A stretch of 32,443 nt of DNA from Candidatus Liptonbacteria bacterium RIFCSPLOWO2_01_FULL_56_20 (GTDB lineage: Bacteria > Patescibacteriota > Minisyncoccia > UBA6257 > 2-01-FULL-56-20). Position numbers and translations under genes: made by a program. The notes below the pieces were generated by a model. That model ran no database searches and had not been told where the DNA came from. It saw only the letters and a program-made list of their open reading frames with translations. Of this stretch, positions 2,624 to 24,810 are shown one piece after another (position 1 is the stretch's first letter; each line of letters opens with the position of its first letter). The stretch is from contig MHLC01000022.1 in the NCBI GenBank assembly GCA_001818655.1, positions 2,319-34,761 on the forward strand, read 5' to 3'.

Positions 2624-2992
2624 ATGAGCGAAAAATTCGATAAACTTATCTCCGAAATTGAAAAATTGTCCGCGCTGGAGCTCGCGGAACTGGTGAAAGC
2701 GCTGGAAGAGAAATTCGGCATTTCGGCTGCCGCGCCGATTGCGGCAGGCGCAGGCGGAGCCGCCCCTGCTGAAGAAGAAAAAACGAGCTTCAACGTGCTC
2801 CTTAAATCCTCTGGTGAGCAGAAGATAAACGTGATCAAAGTGGTCCGCGAAGCGACCGGCCTGGGGCTCAAGGAATCCAAGGATATGGTGGACGGCGCGC
2901 CAAAGACGGTCAAGGAGGGGCTGAAGAAGGAAGAGGCAGAAGAGTTAAAGAAAAAGCTGGAAGCGGCCGGAGCAACAGCGGAGATACAATAG
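2624..2992 (+). CDS. rplL: 50S ribosomal protein L7/L12
   Basis: [19 protein letters not shown]...[27 protein letters not shown]. Confidence 0.98.
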
Positions 2993-2993
2993 A

Positions 2994-3045
2994 TAGAGAG
3001 TAGGAGATATCCGAAGATAGCGAGTAGGGAGTAGGAAGTAGGGGT
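2994..3045 (+). repeat. Degenerate TAGNNAG heptamer array
   Basis: TAGAGAG TAGGAGA ... TAGCGAG TAGGGAG TAGGAAG TAGGGGT immediately after rplL. Confidence 0.75.
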
Positions 3046-3051
3046 ATCCGA

Positions 3052-3086
3052 AAGAGCGCTCTTCACAAAGGGCGCTTTTTTGTTTT
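3052..3086 (+). terminator. Rho-independent terminator of rplJL
   Basis: AAGAGCGCTCTT-CACA-AAGGGCGCTTTT followed by a T tract. Confidence 0.75.
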
Positions 3087-3101
3087 ATGATGGCCTAGAA
3101 T

Positions 3102-3283
3102 GCGCCCATAGCTCAGTGGTAGAGCGTCCCGTTCACATCCGCCTGCCAAAGCGCGCGTTTAGCTCAGTGGTAGAGCGCTTCGTTCACATCGAAGAGGTCG
3201 CTGGTTCGATCCCAGCAACGCGCACCATAAAAGCGGCGGGCAGGTCGGGAAGGCCTGAAGCTCGATCTTTCATGGGCGCACCA
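3102..3283 (+). tRNA. Outer split tRNA-Val(CAC)-like gene: 5' part 3102-3137, 3' part 3245-3283, with a 107-nt intervening sequence containing another tRNA-Val
   Basis: Acceptor GCGCCCA/TGGGCGC+ACCA; D arm GCTC/GAGC; anticodon stem TCCCG/CGGGA; loop TT-CAC-A|T; T stem TGAAG/TTTCA with non-canonical loop CTCGATC. Confidence 0.75.
3153..3227 (+). tRNA. tRNA-Val(CAC), intact, nested inside the outer tRNA-Val
   Basis: GCGCGTT/AACGCGC acceptor; CTTCG/CGAAG anticodon stem; CAC at 3185-3187; GCTGG-TTCGATC-CCAGC; encoded CCA. Confidence 0.96.
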
Positions 3284-3331
3284 TTCTCTCATTCGCGCGA
3301 ATGGTAGAATGAGGAGAATGATCAGGCGACC

Positions 3332-3871
3332 ATGAAACGCGCGCTTATTTTCGGTACAATAGTGGTGGCGGGCATCCTTGTGTACGCCGCCGCGTTGCAG
3401 AAACCGGCTGCGCCATCGCAACAACAAACCATGCTGCTCACAAGTTCCGCGTTCGAACAGAACGCATACATCCCCAAGAAATTCAGCTGCGAGGGATGGA
3501 ACATTAACCCTGAGCTTTTGATCCAGGGCGTGCCTCAAGAGGCAAAGAGCTTGACATTGATCATGGATGACCCGGACGCGCCACGGGGCACGTTCACGCA
3601 CTGGCTCGTGTGGAACATTGATCCCACGACGACTGTGATAAAAGAAGAGAGTGTGCCTCCGGGCAGTATCGAGGGCGCAAACGACGCGGGCAAGATTGGC
3701 TACATTGGCCCATGTCCGCCTCCGGGCGCGCCGCACCGCTATTTTTTCAAACTGTACGCACTTGATGTTTTACTTGACCTTAAATCAGGCGCAAGCAAAA
3801 CCGAACTTGAAGCCGCGCTCCGCAGCCACAGTGAGGCGCAGACAGAGCTTGTCGGCCTTTACGCGCGATAA
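3332..3871 (+). CDS. YbhB/YbcL family (PEBP/Raf kinase inhibitor-like) protein with N-terminal signal/anchor
   Basis: DPDAP..FTHWLVWNI...GYIGPCPPPG..HRYFFKLYALD. Confidence 0.92.
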   Translation: MKRALIFGTIVVAGILVYAAALQKPAAPSQQQTMLLTSSAFEQNAYIPKKFSCEGWNINPELLIQGVPQEAKSLTLIMDDPDAPRGTFTHWLVWNIDPTTTVIKEESVPPGSIEGANDAGKIGYIGPCPPPGAPHRYFFKLYALDVLLDLKSGASKTELEAALRSHSEAQTELVGLYAR

Positions 3872-17795: not shown

Positions 17796-18047
17796 GCCCC
17801 GGTAGCTCAGTCTGGTAGAGCAGCTCCCTTTAGGCTTACGCCTCACGGGTTCGCTCATCGAAAATACAAACAGTCTTAATTGTCCGCTTGGTGCCCCCTT
17901 AGCTCAGTCTGGTAGAGCAGCTCCCTTTTAAGGAGACGGTCGTAGGTTCAAATCCTACAGGGGGCACCAAGCGGGGGATATGTTTGTATTCTTTCTTCGC
18001 TGCCCGTGATAAGGAGATGGTCCTAGGTTCGAATCCTAGCCGGGGCA
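17796..18047 (+). tRNA. Outer split tRNA-Lys(TTT)-like gene: 5' part 17796-17831, 3' part 18010-18047, with a 178-nt intervening hairpin containing another tRNA-Lys
   Basis: Acceptor GCCCCGG/CCGGGGC+A; D arm GCTC-AGTCTGGTA-GAGC; GCTCC-CTTT|TAA-GGAGA; CTAGG-TTCGAAT-CCTAG; no encoded CCA. Confidence 0.85.
17893..17969 (+). tRNA. tRNA-Lys(TTT), intact, nested inside the outer tRNA-Lys
   Basis: GCCCCCT/AGGGGGC acceptor; loop CTTTTAA (TTT at 17927-17929); GTAGG-TTCAAAT-CCTAC; encoded CCA. Confidence 0.96.
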
Positions 18048-18091: not shown

Positions 18092-18160
18092 TAAGCAGAT
18101 GGTCCCAGGTTCTCGTGCCGGAGGCAGATCCGCCTCCGGCGGAAAATCCTGGCCGGGGGA
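18092..18160 (+). pseudogene. Extra tRNA-Lys 3' half with a palindromic element inserted in the T loop
   Basis: TAA-GCAGA-TGGTC-CCAGG-TTC[insert]AAAT-CCTGG-CCGGGGG-A, compared with the outer 3' part TAA-GGAGA-TGGTC-CTAGG-TTCGAAT-CCTAG-CCGGGGC-A. Confidence 0.8.
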
Positions 18161-18209
18161 CAAAAGTGTTCTTGCCAAAATCCTCAAAAATCTGTTAGGA
18201 TAAGTCGCG

Positions 18210-23367: not shown

Positions 23368-24810
23368 ATGCCCAAAGCAGGGAAGATACAGATAATCAAA
23401 TACGCGCCGCCGCCGCCGGAACTCCCGGTCTACGGGCAGGTGAATCCGAGCCAGGCGTCGTTTTTCGGCCGCACGAATTACGTGGCCTCGCTCGAGGAGA
23501 AAAAATTCATTTTCGGCATCAAGCGGGCCGACCGCCGCCGCCATCTCTATATGGTGGGGAAGAGCGGCGTCGGCAAATCAAAACTTCTCGAGCTCCTGAT
23601 TCGGCAGGATATCGCGTACGGATACGGGCTCTGCCTCATTGACCCTCACGGAGACGTGATAGAGGCGATACTGGATTTCGTGCCAGAGAACCGCATCGGG
23701 GACGTCGTCGTCATTGATCCGAGCGACCGCGAATACCCCGCTTTGTTCAACCCGCTCGCGAACGTTGACCCGGGTTTCAAGCACCAGCTCGCCCAGGGGC
23801 TGATCGAGGTGATGGAGAAGCAGTTCGGCGCGAACTGGACGCCCCGCCTGGAGCACGTATTCCGCTTCACCGTGCTCGCTCTCCTGGATTACCCGCACGC
23901 CACCATGCGCGGCATGATCTCCATGCTCACCGACCGCAATTACCGGCAAAAAGTGGTGGAGTATATAGAGGACGACATGGTGAAGCGCTTTTGGGCGATC
24001 GAATTCGCGGACTGGTCGGAGAAGTTTGATACCGACGCCATCATCCCGCTCGTGAACAAGCTCGGCCAGTTCCTCTCGGACCCGCTCCTCCGGAACATTT
24101 TCGGGCAGAAAGAGAACAAAATAGACCTTGATAAGCTGATGAGCGAGAAAAAGATCATCTTCATCAACCTCTGCAAGGGCCGATTAGGCGAGGAAAACTC
24201 GAGCTTTTTGGGTTCTATGTTCATCACGAAGATCAAGCAAGCTGGGATGGCGCGCGCCGCGCTCCCGGAATCAGAGCGCCGCGATTTCTATCTCTACGTT
24301 GACGAGTTCCACAACCTCGTGACCGAGACGTTCGAGAATATCCTCTCCGAGGCGCGGAAGTACGGATTGTGCCTCACGATCGCGCACCAGTATATGGGTC
24401 AGCTCATCCCGCGCGTGCAGGCGGCGGTCTTGGGGAACGTGGGGAGCATCATTATTTTCCGGGTCGGCGGGGAGGACGCGGTGAAGCTGAAGCCGGAAAT
24501 GGCTCCCATATTCGACACGAAAGACATGATCAACCTCGGGATGCAGGAGTTCTATATCAAGATGACCATTGACGGAGAGACCTATGACCCGTTTTCCGCA
24601 GAGACCCTTAAGGTATTGCCCTCGCCCAACCGTTCTCTGAAGAAAGAGATCGTGAAGCAGTCGCGGGATAGATACACCATCCCCGCGGATGCGGCCAAGA
24701 AGCTCATCGCCGGAGAAGAGGCAACGATCTTTCGGAGCGCGCAGGAAAAAGCGATCATTGAAGGGAAGAAAGGCGAGGCAAAAGAAGAAAATATCGAGCC
24801 GCTCATATGA
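23368..24810 (+). CDS. HerA/VirB4/TraD-like P-loop ATPase (type IV coupling protein-like)
   Basis: DRRRHLYMVGKSGVGKS Walker A; IDPHGD; LYVDEFHN Walker B; SEARKYGL..AHQY. Confidence 0.88.
   Translation: MPKAGKIQIIKYAPPPPELPVYGQVNPSQASFFGRTNYVASLEEKKFIFGIKRADRRRHLYMVGKSGVGKSKLLELLIRQDIAYGYGLCLIDPHGDVIEAILDFVPENRIGDVVVIDPSDREYPALFNPLANVDPGFKHQLAQGLIEVMEKQFGANWTPRLEHVFRFTVLALLDYPHATMRGMISMLTDRNYRQKVVEYIEDDMVKRFWAIEFADWSEKFDTDAIIPLVNKLGQFLSDPLLRNIFGQKENKIDLDKLMSEKKIIFINLCKGRLGEENSSFLGSMFITKIKQAGMARAALPESERRDFYLYVDEFHNLVTETFENILSEARKYGLCLTIAHQYMGQLIPRVQAAVLGNVGSIIIFRVGGEDAVKLKPEMAPIFDTKDMINLGMQEFYIKMTIDGETYDPFSAETLKVLPSPNRSLKKEIVKQSRDRYTIPADAAKKLIAGEEATIFRSAQEKAIIEGKKGEAKEENIEPLI

Follow-up and report, generated by a model that had tools for sequence, protein, structure and literature searches.

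A complete tRNA-Val(CAC) gene nested in the anticodon loop of a second tRNA-Val(CAC) gene in a Patescibacteria genome, and a family of inverted repeats that brackets such genes

The stretch analyzed here (the window; 32,443 nt) comes from contig MHLC01000022.1 of Candidatus Liptonbacteria bacterium RIFCSPLOWO2_01_FULL_56_20, a member of the Patescibacteriota. Downstream of rplL, it contains a complete tRNA-Val(CAC) gene that is nested in a 107-nt insert within the anticodon loop of a second tRNA-Val(CAC) gene (positions 3102 to 3283). The ends of the insert are inverted repeats that recur around other tRNA genes in Patescibacteria, mostly between the halves of cognate tRNA genes, and enzymes for splicing of the outer copy were not found in the source genome. 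We propose, with a probability of roughly two in three, that a promoterless cassette bounded by inverted repeats landed with a replacement tRNA in the resident gene, the two halves of which would now form a young relic that serves as leader and trailer of the inner gene. Genomes, contigs, loci, and sequencing runs are referred to by our working numbers (G, C, L, and X), the source genome being G000.

Anatomy of the nested locus

ARAGORN called a complete tRNA-Val(CAC) inside the insert, and the Rfam tRNA model matched it with 72.2 bits (gathering score, 29 bits; E = 9.9e-16) and a complete cloverleaf. This inner copy was the sole Val(CAC) gene that ARAGORN called across the source genome (648 kb in 30 contigs, 97.5% complete). 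It accounts for 75 of the 107 nt of the insert, which contains no open reading frame (ORF). After deletion of the insert in silico, the joined outer halves were called by ARAGORN as a second tRNA-Val(CAC) of 75 nt with seven of seven acceptor pairs, five of five anticodon stem pairs, and a 3′ ACCA. Its T arm deviates, as the stem is closed by a G-T pair (53-61) and the loop reads CTCGATC, with C at position 54. The two copies differ in every stem and have a 17-nt D-arm stretch in common. Deletions of 3138 to 3244, 3139 to 3245, and 3140 to 3246 gave an identical joined product; since TC flanks the insert on both sides, the junction is ambiguous (37/38, 38/39, or 39/40).

The ends of the insert (CCGCCTGCC and GGCGGGCAGG) pair with each other. 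In the RNAfold structure, AUC (3137 to 3139) pairs with GGU (3243 to 3245) and GCCUGCC (3141 to 3147) pairs with GGCGGGC (3235 to 3241). A C·A mismatch separates these two clamp helices, and UUCAC remains as a 5-nt bulge, confined to the 5′ strand. The two strands of the outer acceptor stem pair with each other across the insert, as do those of the outer anticodon stem; the inner cloverleaf lies at the tip of the fold, and the CAC anticodon of the outer copy is displayed in a bulge. The fold of the locus has a free energy of −75.1 kcal/mol (z = −2.49), which was equaled by 2 of 200 shuffled sequences.

The nested reading had been put forward in a first-pass annotation made from the sequence alone, and it was borne out, as were the perfect pairing of both outer stems (acceptor and anticodon) over the insert, their difference from the inner copy, the final CCA, and the deviating outer T arm. 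The in silico joining that it had suggested gave a sequence accepted as tRNA-Val(CAC). The insertion at 37/38 that it gave is one of three equally compatible junctions, and its GC clamp does form, in a less simple register than the one described.

The nest is not an assembly artifact. Reads of two Val genes might have been joined in a metagenome bin, given the D-arm stretch that both copies contain. However, Logan contigs bridge the left junction with no differences over 3109 to 3182 (X2), 3110 to 3182 (X4), and 2950 to 3184 (X6), and the right junction with no differences over 3196 to 3450 (X2, X4, and X5). These contigs represent four runs of four studies, which may include the source sample or be one campaign; the DNA runs that contain the stretch are labeled groundwater and soil metagenomes. 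Nested layouts also recur in independent assemblies of other genera, and we give an erroneous joining next to no chance. One X6 contig that joins 3127 to 3250 through 15 other letters was considered as an empty site and rejected (one contig, side 26, 90% likeness). These letters spell a GAC anticodon arm, and the contig therefore represents another Val gene.

Nesting is not a general result of scanning this genome. Each tRNA was removed together with 0 to 55 nt on either side and the remainder was rescanned, which was feasible for 40 tRNA loci. A spanning tRNA appeared at three of them, namely, Val(CAC) described here, Pro(TGG) on contig C9, and Lys(TTT) at 17893 to 17969 of the window, and at none of the other 37.

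Splicing and processing

Excision of the insert as an intron, followed by religation, would produce two tRNA-Val(CAC) molecules from the locus. The position near 37/38 in the anticodon loop and the tRNA call for the joined product speak for this possibility, and the first-pass annotation had pointed to 37/38 as the canonical archaeal and eukaryotic intron site. This analogy proved weak. The junction is ambiguous, and the fold lacks a bulge-helix-bulge (BHB) motif, as the clamp helix is continuous and has no 3-nt bulge on its 3′ strand. In the source genome, EndA (PF01974) had no match at E ≤ 1, and the best match for RtcB (PF01139) reached 10.9 bits against a cutoff of 27 bits. An Rfam scan of 2800 to 3600 at E ≤ 10 returned tRNA and weak unrelated matches and no group I or other intron family. 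Moreover, the insert of 107 nt is far below group I size, and positions 54 and 61 of the outer T arm are aberrant. In view of the missing EndA, RtcB over the cutoff, BHB motif, and intron family, we see no route to a religated outer tRNA, and an intron appears extremely improbable.

For RNase P, an RNA candidate on contig C11 (7786 to 8269) matched the bacterial type A model end to end (E = 7e-12), with a score of 40.7 bits against an Rfam cutoff of 100. Its length of 484 nt, compared to 367 positions of the model, suggests that the candidate may contain insertions.

Nested tRNA genes in relatives

A DNA search of 60 relatives, the loci of which were then read, revealed Val nests in at least four other genera (G021, G018, G001, and G037). 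The Val(CAC) nest of G021 has the same clamp and site as that of the source genome. The Val(CAC) nest of G018 has a different clamp and an extra hairpin, and that of G001 combines a 13-bp clamp (CCCCGCACCAAAT/ATTTGGTGCGGGG) with a hairpin in the T arm of the outer copy. The G037 nest concerns Val(GAC), and G055 carries an Ile(TAT) nest with the clamp of the source genome. Clamps at the same locus thus fall into different families (G000/G021 versus G001 versus G018). The outer T-arm invariants are broken in G000 and G021.

The comparison of rplL-linked Val loci proposed in the first-pass annotation yielded nested, single, and wrecked states. Among 16 readable rplL-linked Val(CAC) loci, three are nested (G000, G021, and G001), two (G030 and G036) have wrecked Val pieces with hairpin insertions downstream, and the others are plain single genes. 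Wrecks of older halves beside live genes form a decay series in G030, G036, and the source genome itself. An orthologous nest in a congener was sought in G390 and G371, where only ordinary Val genes were found; at the locus matched in G390, Val(GAC) and Ile lie together with a GIY-YIG gene.

A nest could also arise by local duplication or by replication slippage at a hairpin, without horizontal or mobile input. G017, with repeated identical units of a 5′ half and a clamp and with an inner copy equal to the outer copy, fits such an origin. However, this record is N-masked and may be an assembly loop, and we did not count its identical copies as a multilayer nest. In the source genome, the copies differ in every stem, and the inner copy matches genes of other genera at up to 72 bases. 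The repeat family moreover spans classes and encloses other cargo, which leaves local duplication very unlikely.

A family of inverted repeats around tRNA genes

At the DNA level, GCCTGCC (3141 to 3147) and the reverse complement of GGCGGGC (3235 to 3241) differ by one mismatch, i.e., the insert has terminal inverted repeats, and longer ends are common to the members of the family. The pattern CCGCCTGCC-N75-105-GCGGGCAGG was present in 22 of 401 genomes sampled from the order, compared to none for the reversed control. We examined 30 of the 36 listed matches as loci. A tRNA (Val, Ile, Arg, Thr, Gly, Pro, Cys, or Leu) was enclosed in either orientation in 17 of them, and removal of the element uncovered a spanning outer tRNA in 15 of these 17. 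The other 13 loci contained either approximately 100 nt of AT-rich cargo with longer matching ends (CCGCCTGCCAAAGCC.. and ..GGCAATGGCGGGCAGG) or tandem bare hairpins, as on contig C26 of G018. Several genomes have more than one copy of the clamp pattern (five in G375, four in G055, and three each in G405 and G074).

In a scan of all species, 5 of the 120 matches listed enclosed a tRNA, and these five elements, from records titled Saccharibacteria (four) and Uhrbacteria (one), again sit between tRNA-like halves. The 115 listed matches without a tRNA came mostly from GC-rich genomes (Streptomyces and sphingomonads), and we read them as chance. Taken together, the clamp brackets at least 22 tRNAs of eight amino acid types in Patescibacteria, mostly between cognate tRNA halves.

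Cognate identity was initially scored by the anticodon after a sliding splice, and 15 of 22 nests were positive, yet noncognate anticodons also appeared. This test was too lenient and was therefore replaced by flank similarity. Compared to about 20 noncognate controls for each nest, the flanks were most similar to their own cargo in 12 of 22 nests and ranked second or better in 16 of 22. Based on these ranks, cargo and target are cognate far more often than expected by chance.

We distinguish two clamp families (CCGCCTGCC.. and CCCCGCACC..). A second clamp type in the source genome (CCCGCAC../..GTGCGGG) brackets other tRNAs, and a perfect bracketing repeat of at least 8 bp was found at 7 of 39 tRNAs in this genome, compared to 18 of 993 random sites.

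The AT-rich elements of approximately 100 nt (L047, L052, L054, L065, L067, L068, and L070; genomes G375, G405, G074, and others) share their inverted repeats with the Val cassette. Often, ..ATTCGC stands to their left and TA.. to their right, a setting that resembles the TTCG^TAA context of insertions in the anticodon loop of Thr(CGT). These flanks hint at a possible target preference.

The outer copy as the resident gene

Several features of the locus bear on the order of events. The 5′ end of the outer copy lies about 19 nt past the T run of the rplL terminator, the same place as in the single genes of G010 and G035 and in the outer copy of G001. The sole promoter-like site near the locus precedes the outer half (Table 1), and none was found between 3102 and 3153, i.e., before the inner gene. 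The nearest relative by DnaK is G010 (85% identity; others, 74 to 84%, some from partial matches). It has one un-nested Val gene with the acceptor stem GCGCCCT/AGGGCGC and ACCA, which differs from the outer copy at one of seven pairs and from the inner copy at two. The Pro(TGG) nest of the source genome agrees, in that the acceptor of the single Pro gene of G010 equals the outer copy at seven of seven pairs and the inner copy at five. The outer Val acceptor stem and ACCA are also those of the Val(GAC) gene of the source genome. The inner copy, in turn, is identical to the single genes of G019 and G032 at 72 and 71 bases (99% and 97%), compared to 53 and 54 bases for the outer copy.

As judged from these sequences, an outer copy that is the older resident, displaced by the inner gene, fits the evidence. 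The first-pass annotation had offered a decaying older copy displaced by the inner gene as one explanation. The ancestral position, the acceptor stem, and the stages of decay in relatives agree with it. Because the insert belongs to a widespread family of elements that are bounded by inverted repeats and carry many different tRNAs, the inner gene appears to have arrived by insertion of a cassette rather than by simple duplication.

A functional tRNA has a contiguous cloverleaf with an invariant T54 and a G53-C61 pair. The outer copy, split by 107 nt and altered at both of these places, lacks all three and shows what its sequence suggests are the first signs of relaxed constraint. In many apparently live Val(CAC) genes of the group, the T loop reads TCCGATC, which puts C in the place of the expected U55 (L004, L005, L006, L009, L010, L014, L016, L017, L026, L032, and L214). 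Therefore, a T-loop deviation alone is a poor sign of decay in this group.

The outer pieces, held together by the acceptor stem, the anticodon stem, and the clamp, could instead function as an RNA after release of the inner tRNA, e.g., as a processing scaffold, a decoy for nucleases that target tRNAs, or an aminoacyl donor outside translation. A tRNA-like structure with a nontranslational role was the other explanation in the first-pass annotation, and it gained no support. The complete pairing of the outer stems, the retained ACCA, and the CAC anticodon in the bulge are in line with this idea, as are the outer acceptor stems of G000, G021, G018, and G001, which differ by changes on both strands. 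Such changes would equally result if cassettes had entered, on separate occasions, resident genes that were already different from one another. The clamp families differ, and these stem positions are also variable among the single genes of relatives. Elsewhere, the outer halves have hairpin insertions or only fragments of them remain, and we regard an RNA-level function, with T-arm invariants broken in two of the nests, as distinctly unlikely.

Other nested loci and small GIY-YIG genes

A second nest within the window consists of tRNA-Lys(TTT) in a 178-nt insert with a long imperfect rod, flanked by a 5′ half (17796 to 17831) and a 3′ half (18010 to 18047), with the interruption at anticodon position 35/36. 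Deletion of 17832 to 18009 gave a tRNA-Lys(TTT) call by ARAGORN. A third, older Lys 3′ half (18092 to 18162) has a 33-nt double hairpin in its T loop (18113 to 18145). No match to the Lys nest was found in G010.

A third nest lies on contig C9 (362 to 580), where an older Pro gene encloses tRNA-Pro(TGG) (415 to 487) and its clamp (CCCGCACCTTT/AAAGGTGCGGG); the 3′ part of the older gene also carries a double-hairpin insertion. On contig C10 (1365 to 1464, minus strand), a decayed tRNA 5′ half with a hairpin in the D loop is situated directly upstream of a live Val(GAC) gene and is probably the relic of an earlier replacement.

The source genome also contains eight small GIY-YIG frames of 82 to 123 amino acids (contigs C11, C12, C13, C15, C21, C22, and C26). 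Five of the eight are followed on the same strand, within about 60 nt of their end, by a tRNA (Tyr, Gln, Cys, or Arg-CCG) or by the RNase P RNA candidate. On contig C13 (440 to 960, minus strand), a GIY-YIG gene accompanies a clamped tRNA-Gln(CTG) inside an older tRNA-Gln copy; this cassette is flanked on both sides by a direct repeat consisting of a T-loop piece with a double hairpin (CTCGCCGGAGGCGAG and TCCGCCTCTGGCGGA). In G032, a GIY-YIG gene precedes a full Val(CAC) gene and is itself preceded by a perfect tRNA-Val 5′ fragment of 20 nt. G036 has a similar layout, with a 13-nt fragment and GIY-YIG before Val(CAC), and in G390 a GIY-YIG gene lies upstream of Val(GAC).

These genes raise the possibility of homing, in which a nuclease cuts an intact resident tRNA gene and the break is repaired from a cassette-bearing donor, with the tRNA halves as homology arms. 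The small GIY-YIG proteins beside tRNA genes are candidates for such a nuclease, the Gln nest and the Val fragments of G032 and G036 fit the picture, and homing would directly explain why cargo and target are cognate. A precedent is T4 SegB, reported to be a homing nuclease of the GIY-YIG type that lies in a cluster of tRNA genes (PMC2330249). However, the 107-nt insert contains no nuclease gene, and homing through tRNA arms does not account for the occurrence of these repeats as bare hairpins or at non-tRNA sites, where they bracket non-tRNA cargo. We consider homing on its own unlikely as the origin of the nest, although it is a serious competitor as to the mechanism.

A model for cassette insertion and its weak points

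In the cassette reading that we prefer, the insert would be a small, nonautonomous DNA composed of the imperfect inverted repeats CCGCCTGCC and GGCGGGCAGG, A-rich linkers, and a complete tRNA-Val(CAC) gene, and the resident tRNA-Val(CAC) gene that follows rplL would have received it in its anticodon loop. Since the cassette has no promoter of its own, the inner gene would be transcribed from the resident promoter, with the outer 5′ half as its leader and the outer 3′ half as its trailer. The repeats would pair in the transcript and extend the outer anticodon stem, thereby isolating the inner cloverleaf. The clamp helix would prevent mispairing between the near-identical halves of the two genes, and the stem differences between the copies would probably also limit misfolding. 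RNase P and 3′ processing would then release the inner tRNA, and the outer pieces would be discarded, so that the split outer gene, no longer yielding a decoding tRNA, would be a young pseudogene. The insertion would be tolerated because the isoacceptor lost with the resident gene is made available again by the cargo. The cassette could be moved by a trans-acting transposase that recognizes the repeats; alternatively, the small GIY-YIG nucleases encoded in such numbers beside the tRNA genes of the source genome could drive homing-type repair.

Several observations weigh against this model. The source genome holds a single copy of the repeat family, and mobility of the cassette is therefore deduced from other genomes. 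No transposase or autonomous partner was found in the source genome or in 12 sampled stretches of G375, G405, and G390. In the source genome, the Y1 transposase (PF01797) had no match and DUF559 was absent; in the 12 stretches, the repeat pairs lay 30 to 130 nt apart and none enclosed an ORF. Other nests with the same clamp are, by eye, mostly inserted at 35/36 rather than at 37/38 to 39/40 as seen here. The TC that flanks the insert was considered as a target duplication and gained no support from the other nests, which, again by eye, have no duplication in common; the C may belong to the repeat. With respect to direction, the G010 gene is overall equally near to the outer copy (62/77) and the inner copy (63/77), and the direction of replacement therefore rests on position and acceptor stems. 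A rule by which the outer acceptor equals the Val(GAC) acceptor of the same genome was dropped, as it fails in G021 and G018 and holds within one base in G001. Finally, the outer copy has barely decayed, with all 21 stem pairs kept and the T-arm changes at 53-61 and 54 as its deviations. The outer copy may thus still function, as its stems are intact and live Val genes of relatives also have unusual T loops.

Features of the locus

The features of the nested locus and of its upstream region are compiled in Table 1. Elsewhere in the window, an ORF of 480 amino acids (23368 to 24810) matches the DNA-binding domain of TrwB/VirD4-type coupling proteins and the HerA-type helicase domain and may be part of a DNA transfer apparatus.

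Table 1. Features in and upstream of the nested tRNA-Val(CAC) locus (window coordinates)
Feature	Position	Strand	Basis or remark
rplL	2624-2992	+	ORF upstream of the nest
Terminator-like hairpin of rplL, end of the upstream operon	3049-3082	+	15 pairs plus T tail
Sigma-70-like promoter match (TTCACA, 18-nt spacer, TATGAT)	3062-3091	+	10 of 12 matches; expected start a few bases before the outer 5′ half
Outer 5′ half (acceptor GCGCCCA, D arm, anticodon stem TCCCG, loop TTCACAT)	3102-3138	+	Read as resident relic, now putative leader
Left inverted repeat, 5′ arm of the clamp (CCGCCTGCC)	3139-3147	+	Fold; 9-mer recurs in 22 of 401 genomes of the order
A-rich linker (AAAGC)	3148-3152	+	Non-tRNA elements of the family also continue with AAAGC after the repeat
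Inner tRNA-Val(CAC), CCA encoded	3153-3227	+	ARAGORN, Rfam; presumed working copy
A-rich linker (TAAAAGC)	3228-3234	+	Sequence
Right inverted repeat, 3′ arm of the clamp (GGCGGGCAGG)	3235-3244	+	Sequence, fold, recurrence in the family
Outer 3′ half (T, CGGGA, variable AGGCC, T arm TGAAG-CTCGATC-TTTCA, TGGGCGC, ACCA)	3245-3283	+	Read as resident relic, now putative trailer

Implications

tRNA genes are commonly regarded as a stable part of the core genome that is inherited vertically, and as passive targets of integrases. In the present case, the tRNA gene would be the passenger, in that an element of approximately 100 nt destroys the resident gene and, using the promoter of its victim, supplies a substitute in one step. 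More broadly, the tRNA genes of Patescibacteria may be the cargo of phylum-wide, promoterless cassettes that make good the damage they cause and overwrite cognate residents layer by layer, with three nests still recognizable in the source genome. A selfish element of an undescribed kind would then replace alleles of core translation genes horizontally; we advance this extension tentatively and rate it slightly below an even chance.

If the arrangement were general in Patescibacteria, tRNA gene trees of the phylum would not be species trees, and split copies would be missed or misassigned by tRNA finders. Odd tRNA and rRNA gene structures in this phylum might partly be the footprint of small hairpin elements. 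The cassette would also represent a natural minimal design for promoter-free insertion of an expressed RNA gene and a testable case of neutral insertion into an essential single-copy gene.

Comparison with known systems

Classical phages, integrative and conjugative elements, and islands that target tRNA genes restore the 3′ part of the tRNA, duplicate no more than this segment, as direct repeats at attL and attR, and need an integrase. The nest resembles them in that a tRNA gene is the landing site, the tRNA sequence that is carried preserves function, and displaced fragments are left behind. It differs in that a complete new gene lies between the two halves of the old one, with no direct repeats and no integrase inside.

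Repetitive extragenic palindromic (REP) elements and REPINs are GC-rich palindromic hairpins associated with RAYT (Y1) transposases and, to our knowledge, are not carriers of tRNA genes. Our family shares with them the GC-rich hairpins, including bare and tandem copies (contig C26 of G018), whereas the source genome has no Y1 transposase match. Archaeal and eukaryal tRNA introns and split tRNAs likewise interrupt the anticodon loop and have a GC-rich helix that joins the halves. In contrast, the locus described here is bacterial, no BHB motif, EndA, or RtcB over the cutoff was detected, and the insert is a complete tRNA of the same identity.

The tRNA-dependent lysogeny of actinobacteriophages follows a similar logic, in that mobile DNA is reported to integrate into a tRNA gene of the host that is then not restored (Guerrero-Bustamante and Hatfull 2024, PMC10865867). 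There, tolerance of the insertion because the cargo replaces the broken gene is reported to have been demonstrated experimentally (PMC10865867). That system involves a whole prophage, a tyrosine integrase, and an att core of about 10 bp, compared to 107 nt with a tRNA as the sole gene here. The insert furthermore has inverted repeats at its ends, is located in the anticodon loop, and needs the promoter of its target.

Miniature inverted-repeat transposable elements (MITEs) and mobile insertion cassettes (MIC; PMC3913671) are also short, have inverted repeats and no transposase, and occasionally carry a passenger. They occur in several copies per genome, as does the repeat family in relatives, compared to one copy in the source genome. 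Here, unlike in MITEs and MIC, a tRNA is carried along and a cognate gene is interrupted in its anticodon loop, and no clear target duplication or partner transposase was found. With T4 SegB (PMC2330249), the source genome has in common small GIY-YIG genes among tRNA genes that could drive the inheritance of neighboring alleles. In contrast to SegB, no nuclease gene is present in the insert, and the link is circumstantial, coming from other loci of the source genome.

In the full-text literature, subscription journals not being covered, we found no paper on a bacterial tRNA-in-tRNA nest or on a miniature element that carries a tRNA. The recurring tRNA-in-tRNA layout points to an undescribed way of overwriting tRNA genes. 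The nest is related both to miniature elements bounded by inverted repeats and to self-compensating integration into tRNA genes and is a member of neither class alone.

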